This document shows, piece after piece, positions 863-24,913 of a DNA stretch of 64,000 nt. The notes beneath the pieces were generated by a model. That model made no database searches and was not told the origin of the DNA. It worked only from the letters and a program-made list of their open reading frames with translations. Location: assembly GCA_964387645.1 (NCBI GenBank), contig CAYLYM010000006.1, forward strand, positions 355-64,354. Direction: 5' to 3'. The first letter of the stretch is position 1. The number at the start of each line of letters is the position of its first letter. The DNA comes from an uncultured Calditrichaceae bacterium (GTDB lineage Bacteria; Calditrichota; Calditrichia; RBG-13-44-9). A program made the translations under genes and the position numbers.

Positions 863-1780
863 GGTAATTAGAACTTCATTAGACCTTCAGGGCTCTAAAT
901 TTAACTGATTATCTTGTCTTTAGTTAAATAATAAAAAATTTCGTGAGTACCATGACTTTCTTGCTCACCGTTCTACTAACCGCTAAGCTCTTATCTTAAA
1001 TTTGGACTGTTCATAATTGTCAAGAATGAAAAACAGAGAGATGTCATCCTGGGCATATTTGAGTGAATACCACCATTTTTCCTTAAAAAATTTATACACA
1101 AATAAATTTCTTTATCCATCAATTTTATATTTTGCCGTTAATTTTTTTTACATTTTACAATAAATTAATTTTAATTCTTTCTAAACCAGTTGATGTAGTT
1201 GATATGGAGAAAAAAATAAATTTGCTCAAATTGTTGCTCAAAGGGGAGATTTGCTATATGTATAATTTTCATAGAAAAATTGTTGTCGAATATGAAAAAA
1301 TATTTTATAAAAGTGAGAAAGATTTTCTGTTTAAATATTTAAAAAAATTAATAAAACAGAAACTTCCAAATTTCTATTGACAAAATAAATCATTTATTAT
1401 ATACTGTAATAATAGAATAATTATATTTTTGAAGAAGTTGGCGAAAATACAGGGAAATAGTTTTTTTGATCTTGCTTGTTTTAATTTAACATTATTTTTA
1501 AAAGATTGATCTATCAATAATTTTTCAAACCTTTAGCTTAAAAAATATCGAGCGAATATCTAAGAAAAAAATATAAGTTAAAAATATTTATCGAATAAGA
1601 TTTGTTAATGAAAAGAAATTTAGTTATGTATTTTTGAATATATATTGTATATTCAATTATATATTAAAAATATTATTAAATTCTGAAAAATATATCGTTT
1701 AAATTGATTATGGGATAAAGATTAGTTTTATTAATTTTTACTTGTTTTTAACAGGTTTATAAATAATACAGGAGGTATGA

Positions 1781-3457
1781 ATGCAAGGAATTGAAAAAAG
1801 CCCTACTGGAATTAAGGGATTCGATGAAATAACACTAGGAGGTTTACCTAAAGAGAGACCAACTTTAGTTTGTGGAAAAGCAGGTTGTGGAAAAACTTTA
1901 TTTGCTATGGAATTTATTTATAAAGGTGCAGTAGAATTTAGAGAACCTGGCGTATTTGTTGCATTTGAAGAGACTGAAGAAGAACTGAAAAAGAATGTTA
2001 CAGCACTGGGATGGAACCTGGATAAGCTGATTGGTGAGAAAAAATTGATTATTGAACATATTCGTATTAATCCTTCAGAAATTGTGGAGACGGGAGAATA
2101 TAGCCTGGATGGCCTTTTGCTTCGTTTGAAGGCTGCGATCGATGAGATTGGCGCAAAAAGATTGGCAATTGATACTATTGAAGTTTTATTTAGTAGTTAT
2201 TCCAACAGTTTTATACTTCGAGCCGAAATACAGCGGCTATTTCGTTTTCTTAAAGAAAATAAGGTTACAGCCGTTATCACGGGTGAAATGGGAGATGGTA
2301 GACTAACCCGACATGGACTGGAAGAATATGTTTCGGATTGTGTGGTTTCTTTAGATCATTCTGTTGCCAATGGAATTGCTACACGCAGGTTACGGGTGGT
2401 AAAGTATCGTGGCTCTCGCCACGGAACCAATGAATTTCCGTTTTTTATTGAAGAAAATGGATTTTCCTTAATGCCAGTTACTGATCTGGAGATGGATTAT
2501 GAGGTACCTCATGAGAAAATTTCCACAGGAATTCCCCGCTTAGATGCCATGTTTGGAGGTGAGGGCTGTTATCGGGGTAGCAGCATTCTTATTTCCGGTA
2601 CTGCCGGAACAGGAAAGAGTACTTTGGCAGTTACTTTTGCAGATGCCAGTTGTCGCCGCCAAGAACCCTGCCTCTATATTAGCTTCGAAGAATCAGCAGA
2701 TCAAATCATTAGAAACATGCGTTCGGTTGGATTTGATTTGAAAAAACATATAGATAATGGCTTATTGAAATTTTACTCAACACGTCCAACCTTGATGGGA
2801 TTGGAAGAACATCTTTTCATGATACAGTCACAGATAGATAAATTTAACCCCAAGATGGTAATTGTTGATCCTATTTCAAATTTAGTATCCATTTCATCTC
2901 AACTGGAAGTGAAATGGATGTTTACCCGCTTAATTGATTTTATTAAAAGGAAACAAATCACAACTATCATGACTGATTTAACGGAACAGGATAGTTATTT
3001 CCGGGAAAATTCAACTGTGGGTATCTCCTCTCTTATTGATACCTGGATTTTCCTCAGGGACATTGAATCGGGAGGAGAAAGAAATAGAGGGCTTTATATA
3101 CTAAAAGCCAGAGGATTGAATCACTCCAATCAGATTAGAGAATTTCATATTACTTCAAAAGGAATAAAGTTCCTGGATGTTTATACCGGACCTGGAGGAG
3201 TTTTAACAGGTTCGGCCCGATTGACTCAAATGGTAAATGATAAATTAGCAGAACTTAAACGAAAATATGAAGTAAAAAATAAACAATTACAGTTGGAATT
3301 AATGCGTAAACAGATGGAATCCAGGATAGCTGAAATCAGGGCTGAATATGAAGCAAAAGAAGCAGAACTTAAACGTTTAATTGAACAAGATGAATTAAAA
3401 CAAAAAATTTTGGAAGATGCCAGAAAAGAAATGGCGGAACTTCGTAGAGCGGATTAA
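1781..3457 (+). CDS. kaiC: Circadian-clock-type ATPase KaiC (duplicated RecA-like CI and CII domains) with ~70 aa C-terminal coiled-coil extension
   Basis: Two Walker A motifs (GKAGCGKT, GTAGTGKS). Paired catalytic glutamates FEETEE and FEES. SS pair aligning with the KaiC S431/T432 phosphosites (GISSLIDTWIFL). Lys/Glu/Arg-rich heptad tail (ELKRKYEVKNKQLQLELMRKQ...AELRRAD). AGGAGG RBS 6 nt upstream. Confidence 0.9.
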   Translation: MQGIEKSPTGIKGFDEITLGGLPKERPTLVCGKAGCGKTLFAMEFIYKGAVEFREPGVFVAFEETEEELKKNVTALGWNLDKLIGEKKLIIEHIRINPSEIVETGEYSLDGLLLRLKAAIDEIGAKRLAIDTIEVLFSSYSNSFILRAEIQRLFRFLKENKVTAVITGEMGDGRLTRHGLEEYVSDCVVSLDHSVANGIATRRLRVVKYRGSRHGTNEFPFFIEENGFSLMPVTDLEMDYEVPHEKISTGIPRLDAMFGGEGCYRGSSILISGTAGTGKSTLAVTFADASCRRQEPCLYISFEESADQIIRNMRSVGFDLKKHIDNGLLKFYSTRPTLMGLEEHLFMIQSQIDKFNPKMVIVDPISNLVSISSQLEVKWMFTRLIDFIKRKQITTIMTDLTEQDSYFRENSTVGISSLIDTWIFLRDIESGGERNRGLYILKARGLNHSNQIREFHITSKGIKFLDVYTGPGGVLTGSARLTQMVNDKLAELKRKYEVKNKQLQLELMRKQMESRIAEIRAEYEAKEAELKRLIEQDELKQKILEDARKEMAELRRAD

Positions 3458-3476
3458 AAATTTTTGAGGTGATAGA

Positions 3477-3815
3477 ATGGTCAAGACAAAATCAACTCAG
3501 GATCAAAAGTCGGATAAATCAGATGAGTTTTATGAGTTAAGACTTTATGTTGTAGGACAAAGTGAAAATTCTTTAAGAGCGTTTAAAAATTTGAAAAATA
3601 TTTGTGAAGAATACCTGAAGGGTAGGTATTCTATAGAAGTGATTGATTTGTTGGAAAATCCACAATTAGCTAAAGACCACCAGATATTGGCAGTTCCCAC
3701 CCTGGTTCGGAAATTGCCTGAACCAATGAAAAAAATAATCGGGAATCTTGCTAATAAAGAGAAAGTCCTTGTGGGACTGGATCTGAAACCGATGGAATTT
3801 AAGGATAAAGATTAA
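3477..3815 (+). CDS. kaiB: KaiB (thioredoxin-like fold), copy 1
   Basis: 112 aa. KaiB-like core [14 protein letters not shown]...[12 protein letters not shown]. Lies immediately downstream of kaiC with its own GAGGTG RBS. Confidence 0.85.
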
Positions 3816-3838
3816 TCTAAAGCAAGGAAGGATCATTA

Positions 3839-4177
3839 ATGAAAAATGGAGAAAAAGAAATTCAAAATGTAGCGGCTGAATTTGAAAAAGCTTTGCAAAA
3901 ACAGGGAAAGTTATTTTATCGACTCAAGCTTTTTATCTCTGCTAATTCGCCAAGATCGAACAAAGCGATCTTGAATTTAAAATATATCTGCCAGACTTAT
4001 CTTGATGAAAAATATGAATTAGAGGTAATTGATGTTTTAAAAGAAAGAAGTAGTTTAAAAACCTATCACATTATAGCTATTCCGACTTTAATTAAAGAGA
4101 CACCTCTTCCAAAACGAAAGCTGATTGGAGATTTATCCAATAAAGAAGAAGTTTTATATGGATTAGGCATCAAATGA
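3839..4177 (+). CDS. kaiB: KaiB paralog, copy 2
   Basis: 112 aa. LKLFISANSPRS...IIAIPTLIKETPLP matches the same KaiB architecture as copy 1 but is diverged from it. Tandem to copy 1 and co-oriented. Confidence 0.8.
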   Translation: MKNGEKEIQNVAAEFEKALQKQGKLFYRLKLFISANSPRSNKAILNLKYICQTYLDEKYELEVIDVLKERSSLKTYHIIAIPTLIKETPLPKRKLIGDLSNKEEVLYGLGIK

Positions 4178-4196
4178 GCGAGGAGGAATTCTTAAA

Positions 4197-7103
4197 GTGG
4201 GGAATGGAAAAAAAACTCAATCTCATCTTGAAAAGGAGATTCAACGTTTGCAGAAAGAGTTGGGAGAAGCCACTTCAACTTTAAACGCCATAAGAGCTGG
4301 CGAAGTGGATGCCATCGTGGTACATGGTGATAAACAGACCCATGTATATACACTTAAAAGAGCTGATCAATCGTTTCTAACTCTTGTTGAGGAAATGTTG
4401 GAAGGGGCTGTAATTTTTGCATTAGATGGCACGATAATATATTGTAATTCAAGCTTTGCTGAAATGGTCGGAATGCCGGTGAAAAAGGTTATCGGTTCAT
4501 CGTTTTATCAGTTTGTGCTCCCTTCGAGAAAAATTGATATAGAAAAAACTCTGAAAAAAATTGATAAGGATGGATTGCAATTTGAAATGGAATTGAAAAC
4601 TGCGTTGGATAAGAATATACCTGCACTTTTATCCATTAAAAAGACAACCATTGAAAAGGAAGAATTGTTCACCACAACAATTGTTGATTTAAGCGAACAA
4701 AAAAGAAATGAGGAGATTATTGCACGTGGAAGATTGATAGAATCAATGTTAAAACAATCGCAAGAAGCGATTTTGGTTTGTGATGTTGAAGGGCGAATTA
4801 TCATGAGTAGCGAGCCAGCCAGAGAAATGGCCGGTAAAACCAACCTGAATCAATATTTCAAGAATGTTTTCCCCAATATTGTTTTAATGTTAGACGATCC
4901 TTCAGGTTCAGAAACAATTAAACAAATTCCTTTCTCAATCGATGATATTTTGCAAGGCAAATTTTTTTACAATATCGAAGGTAAATTTCAGCGCGGAGAT
5001 GGCAAAATCTATAATATTTTACTGCGAGCTCAAAGTATAAGAGATGAGAAAGATAATATAATTGGTGCTGTTGTTGGGTTTTCGGATATCACTCGGATTA
5101 AGAAAACTGAAAGTAAACGTGTGGCGCTATTTCAGATATCACATGCAGCTTTTTCTGCAGGTAATTTGAAGGAATTCTATTCCAAAGTGCATCAGATTGT
5201 TGGCAAAGTTTGTTATGCTGAAAATTTTTATATTGCCTTGTATTATAGAAATAAAAAAAGATTTGAGTTTGTATATGTTGTGGATGAATATGAGAAATCA
5301 CGCTTACCCAGTGCTCTGGCAGAGATTCTTATAAATAAGGTCACCCAAAAAAAAGAACCTTTATTGGCTTCAAAATCCGAAATTAAAAATTGGGTTTTGG
5401 AAAAAGGAGAGAAGTTTGAAGGAAAAATACCGAATTATTTTTTAGGAGTGCCTTTAAAAGTAAAAGATCAGCCCATCGGCGTTTTGGCTCTTCAGACTTA
5501 TAGGAATTGTGTGTCTTTCGATGAGGAAGAGATGGATTTCTTGAGAGTTATATCTGAACAGGTGGCAATGGCTATAGAGCGTATTCGGATAAATGAAGAA
5601 AATAAATTTCACAATACTGTTTTAACGTGGGTGCCCTATGGAGTTTTAATATTAGATCATACAGGAAAATTGGTCTGGGCTAATTCCACCTTTTGTCAGA
5701 TGATAGATTATTCAATGAAGGAACTCCAGGATGAATTTCCACCAATATATAAAGATTCTGTAAATTTTGGGCAACTTTTCGTTGAGATAGTAAAGTCTCT
5801 CGAGGAAAGTCAATCGTGGCAGGGAGAACTTGTTGTTTTAAGAAAAGATGGGAGTAATTTTCCTGCAGAAGCAATTTTTTCTCCAATAGAAAGAAATGGG
5901 AGTTATTTAGCAAGATATGTTGCCATCATACAAGACGTTTCTGAGAAACGTGAATTGGAACAACAATTTTTCCAGGCTCAGAAAATGGAGGCCATTGGCA
6001 AACTTGCTGGTGGTGTGGCCCACGATTTTAATAATATTCTCACCATAATTAATGGTTATAGCGATTTATTGTTGGCCAGATTAGATACGGATCATCCTTT
6101 TTACAAAGAAATATCTATGATCCGAAAAGCTGGGGAGCGGGCAAGCGGGTTGACAAACCAGCTTTTAGCTTTCAGCAGAAAGCAAATGATACGCCCCAGA
6201 AATCTTAACCTGAATACAATAATAAAAGACACAGAAAAAATGTTGAAGCGTTTAATAGGCGAAGATATTGAGCTTGTAACTCATCTAGATCCCGATTTAA
6301 ATGAAATTCACGTTGATCCCACACAGATTGATCAAATCATTATGAATCTTGCTGTAAATGCCAGGGATGCCATGCCCAAAGGGGGCAAACTAACTATTGA
6401 AACAAAAAATGTCGAATTAGACCAGAGTTATATCCAGAAACATGGAGAAGTTAAAGCAGGTTCTTATGTGATGCTTTCTATAAGTGATACAGGAATCGGG
6501 ATAGATAAGGAAACGATGCAACATATTTTTGAGCCTTTTTTTACAACTAAAGGTAAGGGAGAAGGAACCGGGCTTGGTTTATCTACTGTATACGGAATTG
6601 TAAAGCAAAATAATGGATATATTTGGGTTTACAGCGAGCCCGGCGAAGGTGCAGTTTTTAAAATCTATTTCCCAATAACTTCTAAAAAAGCTGGAGATGT
6701 CGAAGTCGAGAAAATTTCATCAGAAGAGTTAATTGGTAATGAAACAATTCTCCTAGCAGAAGATGATCATTGGGTAAGAGAATTAACAAAGTCCACTCTG
6801 GAAGCTTATGGTTACAAAGTATTGGAAGTAGAACGCGGTGATGAAGCGCTTAAAATTTGCAAAGAATTTAAGAATCCCATACATTTGCTGTTAACTGATG
6901 TAGTTATGCCTGGAATGAGTGGTAGCGAACTAGCTAAAAAAATATTAGAATATCATAAGGATATCAAAATTTTATATATGTCGGGTTATACCGATGACGC
7001 CATGATAAGATATGGGATTCGTGATAAAGAAGTAGAGTTTCTTCAAAAGCCTTTTTCTTCAAAAGTTCTTCTTGAAAAAGTAAGAAAGATATTGAATAAA
7101 TAG
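4197..7103 (+). CDS. Hybrid sensor histidine kinase: PAS-PAS-GAF-PAS sensor region, HisKA (H-box VAHDFNNILTII), HATPase_c (N-box NLAVNARDAM, G-box GTGLGLSTVYGIV), C-terminal receiver domain
   Basis: 968 aa ORF with a GTG start 10 nt after AGGAGG. Conserved H, N, G1 and G2 boxes. C-terminal REC with DD...D...K pattern (ILLAEDDHW...LLLTDVVMPGMSG). Co-oriented directly after kaiB2 with a 19 nt gap. Confidence 0.85.
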   Translation: MGNGKKTQSHLEKEIQRLQKELGEATSTLNAIRAGEVDAIVVHGDKQTHVYTLKRADQSFLTLVEEMLEGAVIFALDGTIIYCNSSFAEMVGMPVKKVIGSSFYQFVLPSRKIDIEKTLKKIDKDGLQFEMELKTALDKNIPALLSIKKTTIEKEELFTTTIVDLSEQKRNEEIIARGRLIESMLKQSQEAILVCDVEGRIIMSSEPAREMAGKTNLNQYFKNVFPNIVLMLDDPSGSETIKQIPFSIDDILQGKFFYNIEGKFQRGDGKIYNILLRAQSIRDEKDNIIGAVVGFSDITRIKKTESKRVALFQISHAAFSAGNLKEFYSKVHQIVGKVCYAENFYIALYYRNKKRFEFVYVVDEYEKSRLPSALAEILINKVTQKKEPLLASKSEIKNWVLEKGEKFEGKIPNYFLGVPLKVKDQPIGVLALQTYRNCVSFDEEEMDFLRVISEQVAMAIERIRINEENKFHNTVLTWVPYGVLILDHTGKLVWANSTFCQMIDYSMKELQDEFPPIYKDSVNFGQLFVEIVKSLEESQSWQGELVVLRKDGSNFPAEAIFSPIERNGSYLARYVAIIQDVSEKRELEQQFFQAQKMEAIGKLAGGVAHDFNNILTIINGYSDLLLARLDTDHPFYKEISMIRKAGERASGLTNQLLAFSRKQMIRPRNLNLNTIIKDTEKMLKRLIGEDIELVTHLDPDLNEIHVDPTQIDQIIMNLAVNARDAMPKGGKLTIETKNVELDQSYIQKHGEVKAGSYVMLSISDTGIGIDKETMQHIFEPFFTTKGKGEGTGLGLSTVYGIVKQNNGYIWVYSEPGEGAVFKIYFPITSKKAGDVEVEKISSEELIGNETILLAEDDHWVRELTKSTLEAYGYKVLEVERGDEALKICKEFKNPIHLLLTDVVMPGMSGSELAKKILEYHKDIKILYMSGYTDDAMIRYGIRDKEVEFLQKPFSSKVLLEKVRKILNK

Positions 7104-7234
7104 AATAAAAAACTCACCACGGCACACTTATTCTTTTTTAACAATTAAAAGGTTATATTTTAATTTATTATTTCTGCAATTAAAGGACCGATTGATCCTT
7201 CAATTAAGATGATGAGACTTTAACTGTCGAAAAA

Positions 7235-7271
7235 ATCGATAAATTTATCGATTTTGAATCTATAATCGATA
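7235..7271. promoter_or_regulatory. Perfect 18-bp palindrome ATCGATAAATTTATCGAT plus a third ATCGATA half-site 13 bp downstream; candidate operator
   Basis: Read directly in the 520 bp intergenic region between the kai/HK operon and rdgB. Confidence 0.3.
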
Positions 7272-7623
7272 AGAAGACTCATCCAATTATAAATTTTAGA
7301 AAACTTAAATTTTGTTTTAAGTTTATTATTTTATTCGTCTTAGATAAATGCACTTAAGTTATTTTGATATTTTTTTGATAAAAATCAGCAGAAAGAGAGA
7401 AAGAATACCAATATTGAAGTAAAGCGGAAGTTTTTTGAAAGTGGATATGCTTTTGATTAGCAATATTTACAAATCAAAAGTTTCTGTTTTTAATAGACTC
7501 TTGAAAGTATAAATAAACCGCTTTTTTAAAATATAGCATTGCTAACAAGGTAAATCTGCTTTATTTTCGATCACATTTTATTGCGAATTACTTTGAGGAT
7601 GGAAAAAATTAGCAAGGTAATTT

Positions 7624-8217
7624 ATGTTAAAGATAGTTGTTGCTACTGGTAATGAAGACAAGTTTAGAGAAATTCTGGATATTTTAAAAGAAGTGCCGGC
7701 AGAGTTTTTCTCATTAAAAGATTTTCCTGATATACCTGAGATCGAGGAAACCGGTATAAGTTTTACCGAGAATGCGTTGTTAAAGGCAAGAACGGTACAC
7801 AAAGCTACTGGTCTTTTTACCCTTGCCGATGATTCAGGTCTTGAAGTAGACGCATTGAATGGAGCACCTGGAATTTATTCTGCACGTTATGCTGGGCAAG
7901 AAAAAGATTATACGGCAAATAATGAAAAGCTATTGAGAGAAATGGAGCAACTTCCTCCAAAAATGCGAGGTGCCCAATTTCGATGTGTGGTGGCTTTAGT
8001 TGGGCAGAATTTTGAGCAAATCGTGGAAGGTGTGATTCGAGGCCGAATTATTGATGAATTGCGCGGGAGTGCCGGATTTGGCTATGATCCCCTGTTCGTC
8101 CCCGAAGGTTACAACAAAACTTTTGCTGAGTTGGGTGAGGAGATCAAAAATAGGATCAGCCACCGTGCCAGAGCGTTTCATAAAGCGAAAGAAATTCTTC
8201 TGAACTTATGGGAATAA
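7624..8217 (+). CDS. rdgB: Non-canonical purine NTP pyrophosphatase (dITP/XTP pyrophosphatase, RdgB/Ham1 family)
   Basis: KIVVATGNEDKFREI N-terminus, FGYDPLF motif, about 197 aa. Confidence 0.85.
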   Translation: MLKIVVATGNEDKFREILDILKEVPAEFFSLKDFPDIPEIEETGISFTENALLKARTVHKATGLFTLADDSGLEVDALNGAPGIYSARYAGQEKDYTANNEKLLREMEQLPPKMRGAQFRCVVALVGQNFEQIVEGVIRGRIIDELRGSAGFGYDPLFVPEGYNKTFAELGEEIKNRISHRARAFHKAKEILLNLWE

Positions 8218-8230
8218 AAACCTCGATTTT

Positions 8231-8818
8231 TCAAACTAACCTTGCTTTGGTTTCTTCGGCAAACTGAATAAGTTGAGGAAAAAATTCCTGAAAATCTTTG
8301 TTAAACGCTTCGTATTGTTTTATTAGCTCACTAACACTTTTTCCCAGATTATTTTTCCGACTTAATCTTTGAGAAAGTCCTTTCAATGCTTTGTCAATTC
8401 CTTCAATTTCCCTGTAAGAAAGCAACCAATTATCTTCGATCATTTTAGGTAACATAAGTTGCATTCTTGGTGGAATGATTGAAACATATTTTCTTAAAAT
8501 GCCATACACCTTCTGGCAAAATGCTTCTAAAGGCAAGTCAGAATAATGTTTCCAATTTTTTGCCAGGAAATGATCGTAAAAAATATCGATGATGATACCT
8601 TTTAACAGATGAAAATCGCCATTAAGTCTATGTTGGCTTCGCAAAAAAACCTCGTGTGAGTCAGTAAATTTATCTATCTTTCTGTGTAGTAAAATGCCTT
8701 TACAAATTTCCTTATCATATTTCGACTGAAAATCATTGTCAACAAAATCAGCCAAAATATTTCCTATTAGTGAATCAGGAGAGTCATCAGCTAAAAACAG
8801 ATGTGCCAGAAAATTCAT
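8231..8818 (-). CDS. acpH: Acyl carrier protein phosphodiesterase (AcpH-like)
   Basis: N-terminus MNFLAHLFLADDSPDSLIGNILADFV is characteristic of AcpH. Size about 195 aa. Confidence 0.6.
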   Translation of the reverse strand: MNFLAHLFLADDSPDSLIGNILADFVDNDFQSKYDKEICKGILLHRKIDKFTDSHEVFLRSQHRLNGDFHLLKGIIIDIFYDHFLAKNWKHYSDLPLEAFCQKVYGILRKYVSIIPPRMQLMLPKMIEDNWLLSYREIEGIDKALKGLSQRLSRKNNLGKSVSELIKQYEAFNKDFQEFFPQLIQFAEETKARLV

Positions 8819-16032: not shown

Positions 16033-17589
16033 ATGGCAAAAAATACTATCCTCTGGGTAGATGATGAGATAGAATTTTTACAACCACATATATTGTTTTT
16101 GAAAGAAAAGGGTTACGAGGTTATTACCACTACTAACGCCGATGATGCTATTGAAATGATTCGAAATGGTGTTTTTGACCTGGTTTTACTGGACGAAATG
16201 ATGCCTGGTAAAGATGGTTTAACTGCACTGGGTGAGATTAAGGAGCTGAATCCGGCCCTTCCGGTAATTATGATTACCAAAAATGAAGAAGAGACTCTGA
16301 TGGAAGATGCCATCGGTGCAAAAATAGATGATTATTTAACCAAGCCGGTGAATCCCAGTCAGATATTGATGGTATGTAAAAAGCATTTGGAATTTCACGA
16401 TATTTCACAGAAACGCTTGACGGAGGCTTCTTCACAAAAGATTCGGGAAATTGCTTTAAAATTGATGGAACCGCTAAATTTTAACGATTGGATTGACATT
16501 TACAGAAAATTGGTTGAATGGGACCTGGAGTTAGACCGGGTGAGCGATCAACAGATGCGCCAGGTTATTTACGATCAGCGTCGGGAATGTAATGTGGAAT
16601 TTGGAAAATTTATTGAAAGAAACTATATCGATTGGCTCCATCAAAAAGAAAATCGGCCAGAGTTGTCGATCGATATTGTGAAGAATTACGTTCTACCTGA
16701 AATGCAGGCGGGGAAAAAGGTAGTATTTGTCGTGATCGATTGTTTGCGTCTGGATCAATGGTTGACTTTAGAACCTTTCTTTTATCCATTCTTTAATATT
16801 TCAAAAACTTTTTATTACTCTATACTTCCCACGGCAACGCCTTTTTCACGTAATGCCATTTTTAGCGGGTTATTTCCATTGGAAATCGAGCGCCGTTATC
16901 CCGATATCTGGGCTCAGGGAGAAGATGATGATTACAGCCGCAACCGCTACGAGGACAAATTGCTTTACGATCAGTTACGTATTCTTGGTCTGAAACTTCA
17001 GTCATCTCCCGGATATATTAAAATTTTAAATTCGGAAGACGCCAAAAGTCTGGAAAAGAATTTGCCAGGTTATCTGGATTCATCATTATTGAGTATTGTA
17101 GTAAATTTTGTGGACATTTTGGCGCACAGCCGTTCGGATGTGCCTATTTTAAAAGAAATTGCTCCTGATGAATCTTCTTACCGCTCGCTGACTCGATCGT
17201 GGTTTGAACATTCTGCAATTTATAATGTCTTTAAGATTTTAGCCGATCAGAATGTGACTATTATTCTGACCAGCGATCATGGCAGTATTCGAAGTTTGAG
17301 GGGAACAAAAGTTATCGGTGATCGCGAAACCAGCACCAATTTGCGCTATAAATACGGGCGAAATTTGAAAGTAAATCCAAAACATGCCTTGTATATCAAG
17401 AACCCGAAAGATTTTAAATTACCTCAATCCAATTTCAATGTTAATTATATCATCGCTAAAGAAGATTACTATTTTGTTTATCCGACCAATTATCATAAAT
17501 ATCTGGCCTATTACCGCGATAGTTTTCAACATGGCGGGGTTTCGATGGAGGAAATGATTCTACCACTGGTGAAGTTGCAGCCTAAATAG
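16033..17589 (+). CDS. PorX-like response regulator: N-terminal CheY-like receiver fused to a PglZ (alkaline-phosphatase superfamily) effector domain
   Basis: REC motifs ILWVDDE...LVLLDEMMPGKDG...K. C-terminal PglZ-type metal-ligand motifs VFVVIDCLRLDQW and TSDHGS. Confidence 0.8.
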   Translation: MAKNTILWVDDEIEFLQPHILFLKEKGYEVITTTNADDAIEMIRNGVFDLVLLDEMMPGKDGLTALGEIKELNPALPVIMITKNEEETLMEDAIGAKIDDYLTKPVNPSQILMVCKKHLEFHDISQKRLTEASSQKIREIALKLMEPLNFNDWIDIYRKLVEWDLELDRVSDQQMRQVIYDQRRECNVEFGKFIERNYIDWLHQKENRPELSIDIVKNYVLPEMQAGKKVVFVVIDCLRLDQWLTLEPFFYPFFNISKTFYYSILPTATPFSRNAIFSGLFPLEIERRYPDIWAQGEDDDYSRNRYEDKLLYDQLRILGLKLQSSPGYIKILNSEDAKSLEKNLPGYLDSSLLSIVVNFVDILAHSRSDVPILKEIAPDESSYRSLTRSWFEHSAIYNVFKILADQNVTIILTSDHGSIRSLRGTKVIGDRETSTNLRYKYGRNLKVNPKHALYIKNPKDFKLPQSNFNVNYIIAKEDYYFVYPTNYHKYLAYYRDSFQHGGVSMEEMILPLVKLQPK

Positions 17590-24622: not shown

Positions 24623-24820
24623 TTTATGAAATTGCTTTAAAATTTGAAGAATTAATAAAAGACACTCCATCTAATTTTTATGAGTTCGCGAAAAACTTCT
24701 TATTAAGAATAAAGTAATAGAACTTTTTTGCTTTTAAACTAAGCACGTTTTTGAAAATACAAAATTTTCTTGCTCCTTACAATGATAGCCATTAAATTTT
24801 GCTGCATTTTATAATAGATT

Positions 24821-24906
24821 GCCGGGGTGGTGGAATTGGCAGACGCGCTAGGTTCAGGACCTAGTGGGCTTGATCGCCCGTGCGGGTTCGAGTCCCGCCC
24901 TCGGCA
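24821..24906 (+). tRNA. tRNA-Leu, anticodon CAG, long variable arm
   Basis: Acceptor stem GCCGGGG/CCTCGGC. Anticodon loop TTCAGGA. T-arm GCGGGTTCGAGTCCCGC. Near-identical in layout to E. coli tRNA-Leu(CAG). CCA not encoded. Confidence 0.9.
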
Positions 24907-24913
24907 CCCCAAA

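Follow-up and report, generated by a model that had tools for sequence, protein, structure and literature searches.

A KaiA-less kaiC2 locus with two divergent kaiB genes in an uncultured Calditrichaceae bacterium and its counterparts across phyla

Layout of the locus and identity of its KaiC

The analysis concerns a Kai-type gene cluster in the DNA of an uncultured Calditrichaceae bacterium (assembly GCA_964387645.1, contig CAYLYM010000006.1, positions 355 to 64,354 of the forward strand), and the whole 64,000-nucleotide (nt) stretch is referred to below as the window, with positions counted from its first letter. At positions 1781 to 7103 it carries a kaiC gene, two kaiB genes and a gene for a hybrid histidine kinase, and comparison with other genomes identifies this locus as an ordinary, intact member of a widespread four-part cassette that occurs in bacteria and some archaea. 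The four genes are the following (aa, amino acids).

1781..3457, + strand: kaiC, KaiC2/Rhodobacter type, 558 aa; ATG start; two PF06745 domains
3477..3815, + strand: kaiB-a, the position-1 (Rhodobacter-KaiB-type) gene, 112 aa; KaiB family PF07689 at 94.4 bits (cutoff 27)
3839..4177, + strand: kaiB-b, the position-2 (Legionella-KaiB-type) gene, 112 aa; KaiB family PF07689 at 76.1 bits (cutoff 27)
4197..7103, + strand: hybrid sensor histidine kinase, 968 aa; GTG start; PAS-PAS-GAF-PAS-HisKA-HATPase_c-REC

The genes are co-oriented and separated by 19, 23 and 19 nt, and motifs of 5-7 nt resembling Shine-Dalgarno (SD) sequences (AGGAGGT, GAGGTGA, AAGGA and AGGAGG, window 1751-4196) precede all four. 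A preliminary description of this DNA had reported the co-orientation, gaps of 19 to 23 nt, an SD of its own for each gene and no kaiA; the coordinates were reproduced exactly by the list of open reading frames (ORFs), the SD motifs were recovered, and the last statement holds at the level of the locus, where family searches detected no KaiA-like gene flanking the operon, the other 57 kb of the window not having been scanned for KaiA. An 82-aa ORF upstream of kaiC (1132-1380, +) was rejected as a hidden KaiA-like partner, having no family match. The scan for terminator-like hairpins listed some on the + strand inside coding sequences, none in the three intergenic gaps and none in the 1.2 kb after the kinase stop (7104-8300), including the 520-nt gap before the next gene. 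Homologous loci present the identical gene order, often with 4-nt overlaps, and an operon-like arrangement is supported at the level of sequence.

The first gene product, KaiC, has the following features.

1874..1897, + strand: CI Walker A motif GKAGCGKT, residues 32-39, with the CI catalytic EE pair at residues 63/64
2597..2620, + strand: CII Walker A motif GTAGTGKS, residues 273-280, with the CII catalytic EE pair at residues 303/304
3026..3031, + strand: Ser416-Ser417, predicted autophosphorylation sites, aligned with Rhodobacter S413/S414 (8FWI is the EE mimic)
3233..3454, + strand: C-terminal extension, residues ~485-558, a predicted coiled coil in which E/K/L/A/R abound and the heptad pattern is weak

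The protein reaches 701.7 bits with NF006799 (cutoff 408), 340 bits with the cyanobacterial TIGR02655, which is under the cutoff of 546, and just 72 bits with the RadA family TIGR00416, and it thus scores as a KaiC and not as one of the RadA/RecA-like ATPases, a grouping with which would, according to the preliminary description, have refuted its reading. Its closest match in the PDB is the KaiC of Rhodobacter sphaeroides (8DBA, E 6e-187), aligned over residues 2-541 and into the coiled-coil tail, where the alignment is free of gaps as far as residue 541. None of 85 KaiC relatives deviates at the Walker lysines or the EE pairs, 82 of them have the SS pair, and their tails have a median length of 86 aa. 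With these positions located, the earlier account of KaiC is borne out, in that the Walker A motif and the EE pair are kept in both domains and the protein has an SS phosphosite and a long tail of the coiled-coil type; so is the kinship it proposed to the KaiA-independent, hourglass-type KaiC of R. sphaeroides, which is seen in the structural match, the SS site and the tail.

The KaiC2 clade has been defined by a C-terminal extension of ~50 aa and a two-serine site (Pitsawong et al., PMC10076222). In R. sphaeroides the tail builds a dodecamer with exposed A-loops, leading to KaiA-independent autophosphorylation, and KaiB together with a falling ATP/ADP ratio drives KaiC dephosphorylation, which makes the system an hourglass and no free-running clock (PMC10076222). 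Judged by homology, the KaiC of the window is a typical KaiC2/Rhodobacter-type protein that matches established knowledge and brings no novelty. KaiC2 systems without KaiA are already known, as are their tail and SS site and a PAS kinase in the neighbourhood.

The two KaiB paralogues, their distribution and predicted folds

The best PDB matches of KaiB-a and KaiB-b are KaiB chains in both cases, and the two proteins are 46% identical to each other. KaiB-b has a conserved N-terminal helix (residues ~3-21) that is absent from KaiB-a, and the proteins nearest to it, ~50% identical, come from filamentous cyanobacteria and other phyla and bear the name 'KaiB family'. The genes are adjacent, both encode 112 aa and both products belong to one Pfam family, as would be expected of a recent, lineage-specific tandem duplication that left redundant KaiBs. 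The identities point the other way, being low between the neighbours and ordered by position across phyla: the mean is 68% among position-1 KaiBs, 50% among position-2 KaiBs, 45% between the two positions and 46% between the two KaiBs of one genome, so that each KaiB is far nearer to the same-position KaiBs of other phyla than to its own neighbour.

This observation is further strengthened by a neighbour-joining tree of 58 position-1 and 57 position-2 KaiBs, with 100 bootstraps, in which one clade holds 57/57 position-2 and 0/58 position-1 sequences; the split is perfect in 84/100 bootstraps and at least 0.9 in all 100. Clade-specific hidden Markov models (HMMs) assign KaiB-a to the position-1 type by 24.5 bits and KaiB-b to the position-2 type by 25.9 bits, and in a database search 120/120 of the top KaiB-a relatives were of the position-1 type and 109/120 of the top KaiB-b relatives of the position-2 type. 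With two cleanly separated clades and an arrangement spread over more than ten phyla and Candidatus Methanoperedens, a recent duplication is very improbable. A local, redundant copy was ruled out by the identities and the clade structure, and the 'tandem duplication' of the preliminary description does not stand in any recent sense. On these comparisons, KaiB-a and KaiB-b are ancient, separate paralogues.

Where synonymous divergence (dS) is unsaturated, the ratio of nonsynonymous to synonymous substitution rates (dN/dS) is 0.02-0.13 at position 1 and 0.05-0.18 at position 2, and both paralogues are under purifying selection, with the position-2 KaiBs evolving faster. The possibility that KaiB-b is a decaying copy was discarded, the gene being intact in 57/57 loci at the dN/dS just given. 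Among characterised KaiBs, that of Rhodobacter scores higher with the position-1 HMM by 14 bits and falls outside the position-2 clade in 88/100 bootstraps; for Legionella KaiB (Lpp1115) the position-2 HMM is ahead by 17.5 bits, and the protein falls within the position-2 clade in 92/100. The placement of cyanobacterial KaiB1 is unstable (50/100 bootstraps). Taken by sequence relationship, KaiC and KaiB-a are orthologous to the R. sphaeroides KaiBC pair.

To place the locus among its relatives, a KaiC profile made from four sequences, three of them from two-KaiB loci, was run against one genome per species; this gave more than 568 confirmed matches, of which the best 80 were retained, and ORFs together with KaiB, KaiC and kinase homologues were called in these. 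Among the 73 kaiC2-type genes that could be scored, having 900 nt or more of sequence behind them, two kaiB genes follow in 52, one in 19 and none in 2, a two-KaiB share of 71% that is possibly biased upward, the profile being mostly derived from two-KaiB loci. In the best 80 loci, KaiC is never more than 58% identical to that of the window, whose species is therefore probably absent from the genomes searched. The two-kaiB loci cover more than ten phyla: they occur in Bacteroidota, Cyanobacteria, Acidobacteriota, Desulfobacterota, Myxococcota, Planctomycetota, Verrucomicrobiota, Nitrospirota, Chloroflexota, Firmicutes and Proteobacteria and in the archaeon Candidatus Methanoperedens. The order kaiC-kaiB-kaiB-kinase is also found in Kamptonema and in the loci L008/L009 (protein named Janthinobacterium lividum by NCBI), and a Brevinematales locus has a single kaiB. 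Relatives in culture with the cassette include Spirosoma, Mucilaginibacter, Pedobacter, Nostoc and Janthinobacterium.

The preliminary description had called the arrangement unusual and asked whether the kaiB-kaiB pair recurs in other genomes; it does, in the 52 of 73 genes and the phyla just listed, and the word 'unusual' has to be given up. Its statement that two KaiBs are not part of described KaiBC systems possibly stands for the literature, full-text searches of which, with incomplete coverage, found no description of paired KaiB paralogues, and it fails for the sequence databases. Schmelling et al. (2017, PMC5520375) reported that Bacteroidetes encode only KaiB2/KaiC2-like proteins, and surveys of KaiB2/KaiC2 count homologues per genome and, in the accessible part of their text, resolve neither side-by-side KaiB paralogues nor the N-terminal kinase module described in the next section.

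Several of the loci inspected depart from the common form or extend its range. Two loci of Candidatus Methanoperedens (L060, L062) carry kaiC-kaiB-kaiB-output in methanotrophic archaea, with KaiC 55-57% identical to that of the window, which implies that the whole cassette was transferred between domains. A deltaproteobacterial metagenome-assembled genome (L042:3288-8003) has tandem KaiC2 cassettes, kaiC-kaiB-kaiB followed by kaiC-kaiB, and encodes a protein with the kinase module upstream (944-1936). At L051:5965-8046 an over-long kaiC ORF (693 aa) holds, in a different reading frame, 45 aa with 76% identity to KaiB-a, apparently what is left of a position-1 kaiB that is frameshifted or in decay, the position-2 kaiB alone being intact. 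In the single-KaiB loci with a gap after kaiC (L013, L056, L066), tblastn revealed no missed first kaiB. Finally, L093:3289-6037 shows kaiB-kaiB-kinase preceded by 3.3 kb in which no kaiC was called, and L094 and L095 place a kinase with the module beside short KaiCs (485 and 492 aa) in which the tail is possibly absent; given these three exceptions, the cassette is not strictly tied to a long-tailed KaiC.

Each KaiB was modelled with AlphaFold (AF2) following AF-Cluster logic, using one 31-sequence alignment limited to its own clade. Ground-state KaiB crystals make up all 17 of the best PDB matches to the KaiB-a model (template modelling score, TMt, 0.65-0.76), the element order of the model is beta-alpha-beta ... 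alpha-beta, and fold-switched structures align with the model over the N-terminal half only. For KaiB-b the 10 best matches are all fold-switched KaiB, among them 4KUN (TMt 0.80), 5JYT and the KaiC-bound chain 8FWJ_M (0.81); the model runs from the extra N-terminal helix into beta-alpha-beta-alpha-beta ... alpha, and ground-state structures reach a TMt of at most 0.5, with a root-mean-square deviation of ~7 A. Legionella KaiB was crystallised in the fold-switched, thioredoxin-like state, and the KaiBs of Rhodobacter and of cyanobacteria are metamorphic and rest in the ground state (PMC10808063, PMC11665890); the contrast between the two models is in line with the clade assignments, which are of the Rhodobacter and the Legionella type, respectively. 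We lean slightly towards the modelled outcome, in which the two KaiBs would rest in different folds, KaiB-a in the ground state and KaiB-b thioredoxin-like.

It is rather unlikely, in our estimation, that both KaiBs are metamorphic and that the AF2 contrast is an artefact of shallow alignments, in which case the paralogues would serve in mixed KaiC rings or under different conditions, e.g. of temperature. Such an artefact would fit the low confidence of both models, whose mean pLDDT values are 60.5 and 59.8, with C-terminal halves at 45-65, and the known dependence of AF2 on alignment composition for KaiB (PMC10808063). It would also fit the position-2 consensus, which keeps Gly89 and Asp91 (T. 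elongatus numbering), KaiB-b itself having G...G. Against it, the models differ in the same way as the characterised members of the two clades, ground-state and metamorphic in Rhodobacter and fold-switched in Legionella. A residue-level call of the fold from K58/G89/D91 was abandoned since the position-2 consensus retains G and D, and these classical positions are not diagnostic of fold state.

The output kinase and the proposed mode of action

Beyond the KaiBs, the fourth gene encodes a kinase with three parts.

4197..4721, + strand: Kai-associated N-terminal module (N-module), residues 1-175, with a coiled-coil helix, the 'AIRAGEVDAIVV' motif and the first PAS domain (63-170)
4767..5966, + strand: variable sensor part, with PAS-2 (~191-300), GAF (~324-461) and PAS-3 (~472-590, with the family match at 480-583)
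5997..7085, + strand: HisKA and HATPase_c (residues 601-828) and receiver (851-963), from Pfam/NCBIfam and motifs

The earlier identification as a PAS-PAS-GAF-PAS hybrid kinase is confirmed by the domains that Pfam/NCBIfam recover and by the motifs in place, namely the H-box His609 (AHDFNN), the G1 box DTGIG at 764, the G2 box GEGTGL at 788 and the receiver Asp901 (LLLTDVVMP). The suggestion that such a kinase is an unusual neighbour has to be dropped, a PAS kinase adjoining kaiBC having been noted in the literature (PMC10931921). The proteins encoded directly after the last kaiB of 48 two-kaiB loci were compared, and 46 contain PAS domains, 42 a histidine kinase and 13 a receiver domain; the kinase types vary (HisKA, HisKA_2, HisKA_3 and HWE), and two GGDEF/EAL proteins and two sigma-54 activators are among the 48. 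What these proteins share is the first ~175 residues, which contain the helix, the motif 'AIRxGEVDALVV' and PAS domain 1 and in which ~15 positions are nearly invariant, and the sensor part downstream is poorly conserved.

An HMM of the N-module scores 64-243 bits on 48/48 of these proteins and at most 45 bits on the other PAS kinases in the same loci. Residues 1-175 were moreover searched, by a word-index-free method, against 1.84 billion representative proteins, which gave 4,811 proteins at E <=1e-10, with the top matches almost always at the protein N-terminus. Six matches of 29-42% identity, picked blind to their context, were looked up and lay directly after kaiB in 6/6 cases, four of them after kaiB-kaiB and two after a single kaiB. 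The family libraries searched hold no curated family for the module beyond generic PAS, and the GTG start at 4197 is supported because the alignment of the N-module begins at HMM position 1. By these comparisons, the first 175 residues of the kinase are a specific marker of Kai loci, and the output domains behind it vary.

In cyanobacteria, the PAS domains at KidA's N-terminus bind fold-switched KaiB (PMC9478674), and by analogy the N-module is likely a docking element to the Kai complex. Since single-KaiB loci carry the N-module too, KaiB-b cannot be its obligatory partner. This bears on the idea that KaiB-b no longer acts on KaiC and has become a thioredoxin-fold adaptor of the kinase, in effect a SasA split over separate polypeptides. 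That kaiB-b always directly precedes the output gene, that its model resembles the SasA N-domain (6X61, TMt 0.60-0.64), that it has the extra N-terminal helix which KaiB-a lacks, and that it evolves faster than KaiB-a would all suit such a role. We nonetheless regard it as unlikely, as the KaiB-b model fits the KaiC-bound KaiB 8FWJ_M better than SasA, loci without a position-2 KaiB have the N-module just as well, no KaiB-b/kinase fusion was seen among the top 120 homologues, and the signal of specific co-evolution between KaiB-b and the N-module is missing from the distance-matrix correlation (partial r 0.10, vs 0.18 for KaiB-a).

No Hpt protein or response regulator is encoded beside the kinase. 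The sole other receiver protein in the window, according to a phmmer search with the REC domain, is a response regulator of 518 aa with REC and PglZ domains (16033-17589, +), which is a remote candidate for the partner of the hybrid kinase. We take the REC-PglZ architecture to be that of PorX, a regulator of the type IX secretion system of Bacteroidota.

Considering these results together, the region is probably a complete KaiC2-type, KaiA-independent cassette, made up of kaiC2, a position-1 kaiB, a position-2 kaiB and an output protein with the helix-GEVDA-PAS module. By homology to R. sphaeroides (PMC10076222), KaiC hexamers would be joined tail-to-tail by the coiled coil with their A-loops exposed, and KaiC would autophosphorylate Ser416/Ser417 without KaiA. 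Fold-switched KaiB-a on the CI ring would then bring faster ATP hydrolysis and dephosphorylation at a falling ATP/ADP ratio, and the outcome would be an hourglass or energy-state timer with no free-running clock. The steps that follow are put forward with lower confidence. KaiB-a may be metamorphic and at rest in the ground state, hence a slow binder, and KaiB-b may at rest be thioredoxin-like and binding-competent, as are the SasA N-domain and Legionella KaiB. Fold switching would then not delay the binding of KaiB-b to CI, and the protein could act as a seed or a competitor of the KaiB-a ring or as a bridge to the kinase. The kinase may dock through its N-module, as the KidA PAS domains do on fold-switched KaiB, and integrate its own PAS/GAF inputs, and its receiver may pass the phosphate to a partner that is not encoded nearby.

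A wider proposal, held tentatively and with some doubt, is that the prevalent KaiA-less form of the Kai system may be, in place of the pair with a single KaiB known from Rhodobacter, Rhodopseudomonas or Legionella, a four-part machine in which a metamorphic KaiB sets the delay, a fold-locked KaiB with an N-terminal helix acts as a SasA-N-like nucleator, competitor or adaptor on the CI ring, and the N-module recruits interchangeable outputs (several histidine kinase types, GGDEF/EAL proteins and sigma-54 activators). Several points weigh against these readings, besides the model confidence and the possible census bias given above. The N-module is also found in single-KaiB loci, and the distance-matrix correlation gives no signal specific to KaiB-b and the N-module. 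By plain phmmer, KaiB-b matches Rhodobacter KaiB at 75.6 bits and Legionella KaiB at 62.4 bits and is thus nearer to the former; Legionella KaiB forms a long branch. The host is probably a non-phototroph, for which a day/night ATP/ADP cue is not obvious.

This last point is also where a different function has to be considered, namely that the cassette measures no day length and is a stress or energy-state module, as has been proposed for Legionella KaiBC, in which KaiC would gate the kinase in the role of a scaffold or switch dependent on ATP. The window has no sign of phototrophy, the cassette is found also in anaerobes and methanotrophic archaea, KaiB-b falls in the clade of Legionella KaiB, whose kai operon is linked to stress response and not to rhythms (PMC10808063, PMC11665890), and Synechocystis KaiC2B2 is dispensable for rhythms (PMC11372060). 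On the other side, KaiC and KaiB-a are close orthologues of a Rhodobacter pair with hourglass behaviour (PMC10076222), and since an ATP/ADP-driven hourglass already senses the energy state, both readings overlap. We consider a non-timing role quite possible, at somewhat less than even chances, and the Legionella and Synechocystis precedents would call for caution about time measurement.

Among studied systems the closest is Rhodobacter (Cereibacter) sphaeroides KaiBC (8DBA, 8FWI, 8FWJ; PMC10076222), to which the window corresponds in KaiC from end to end, tail included, in the SS phosphosite, in the Walker A motif and EE pair of each domain, in the lack of KaiA (here at the locus), in a KaiB of the same paralogue type as KaiB-a and in a PAS histidine kinase nearby. 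It differs in that Rhodobacter has one KaiB, whereas the window locus adds a second, divergent paralogue, and in that the window kinase is a PAS-PAS-GAF-PAS hybrid placed directly downstream in a host that is probably non-phototrophic. The Legionella pneumophila kai operon (Lpp1114/Lpp1115) is likewise KaiA-less and in a non-phototroph; Lpp1115 belongs to the clade of KaiB-b, whose model fits 4KUN at the TMt given above. Unlike the window, Legionella has a position-2-type KaiB only and no position-1 KaiB, and Lpp1115 is ~41% identical to KaiB-b and has Ala at the Gly89 position, where KaiB-b has Gly (PMC11665890).

With Synechococcus elongatus KaiABC, the window shares, by homology, a double-domain KaiC with autokinase and ATPase activity. 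In Synechococcus, KaiB binds CI in its thioredoxin-like form, and SasA-N and the KidA PAS domains couple outputs to KaiB/KaiC (PMC9478674). The window locus, in contrast, is without KaiA, has SS in place of ST phosphosites and a long coiled-coil tail, its KaiC is under the TIGR02655 cutoff (340 vs 546), and its kinase has no fused KaiB-like domain; self-sustained oscillation by the cassette would not be expected. Synechocystis sp. PCC 6803 KaiC2-KaiB2 (PMC5520375, PMC11372060) belongs to the same KaiC2 subgroup.

Three aspects were not found in the literature searched, which was incomplete: the common form of the cassette with two anciently diverged KaiBs in fixed order, the correspondence of KaiBs with different predicted resting folds to the Rhodobacter and Legionella types, and a dedicated N-terminal module on the output protein. 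Models of clock evolution before KaiA have been built on single-KaiB systems, and if it is true that most KaiC2 systems have two functionally different KaiBs and a docking module, these models omit a component conserved across more than ten phyla. The KaiB pair would, if so, also constitute a natural fold-switching experiment, with neighbours ~46% identical of which one is metamorphic and the other possibly locked. For the window alone the finding is modest, being one more intact copy of a common cassette.

Expression signals and further copies of the locus

The region upstream of kaiC offers the following candidate features.

1132-1380, + strand: 82-aa ORF that begins with TTG and lies upstream of kaiC in AT-rich spacer DNA; gene calls on metagenome contigs include it
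1377..1405, + strand: candidate sigma-70-like promoter TTGACA-17-TATACT, 11/12 consensus, in the 400-nt AT-rich leader upstream of kaiC
1629-1636, + strand: TAnnTTTG -7 box of the Bacteroidota-type consensus, a possible promoter
1634-1642 / 1648-1656, + strand: perfect 9-nt inverted repeat TTGAATATA-N5-TATATTCAA, overlapping the TAnnTTTG box ~125 nt upstream of kaiC, a possible operator

The 82-aa ORF is probably spurious, a product of AT-rich DNA. The promoter scan as a whole found 17 sites, fewer than the mean of 28.9 in shuffled sequences, so the site at 1377..1405 is a candidate only. TAnnTTTG occurs 79 times in the window against 84 expected, which is no enrichment, and with promoter-like sites below the shuffles the transcription signals stay candidates. 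The inverted repeat at 1634-1656 could be an operator near kaiC, and a chance origin is likely in AT-rich DNA. As to translation, 39 other ORFs of the window were scored for SD motifs, with a match of at least 6 nt in 4 and no match in 19, and SD strength at the kai operon departs locally from the weak SD usage of the host, which may hint at horizontal acquisition or translational coupling; G+C content is even over the operon and the window.

The exact KaiC sequence and the same four-gene order are present on four independent metagenome contigs. In one of these copies (L002:3690-6412, JGI 3300033150) the kinase is split into 398 and 490 aa near PAS-2/GAF, by a frameshift that is natural to this copy or by an error of assembly. 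The representative of the 90%-identity cluster of this KaiC is labelled 'Bacteroidetes bacterium' by NCBI. Outside the operon, a tRNA-Leu(CAG) at 24820-24909 (+) is the sole RNA gene detected in the window.

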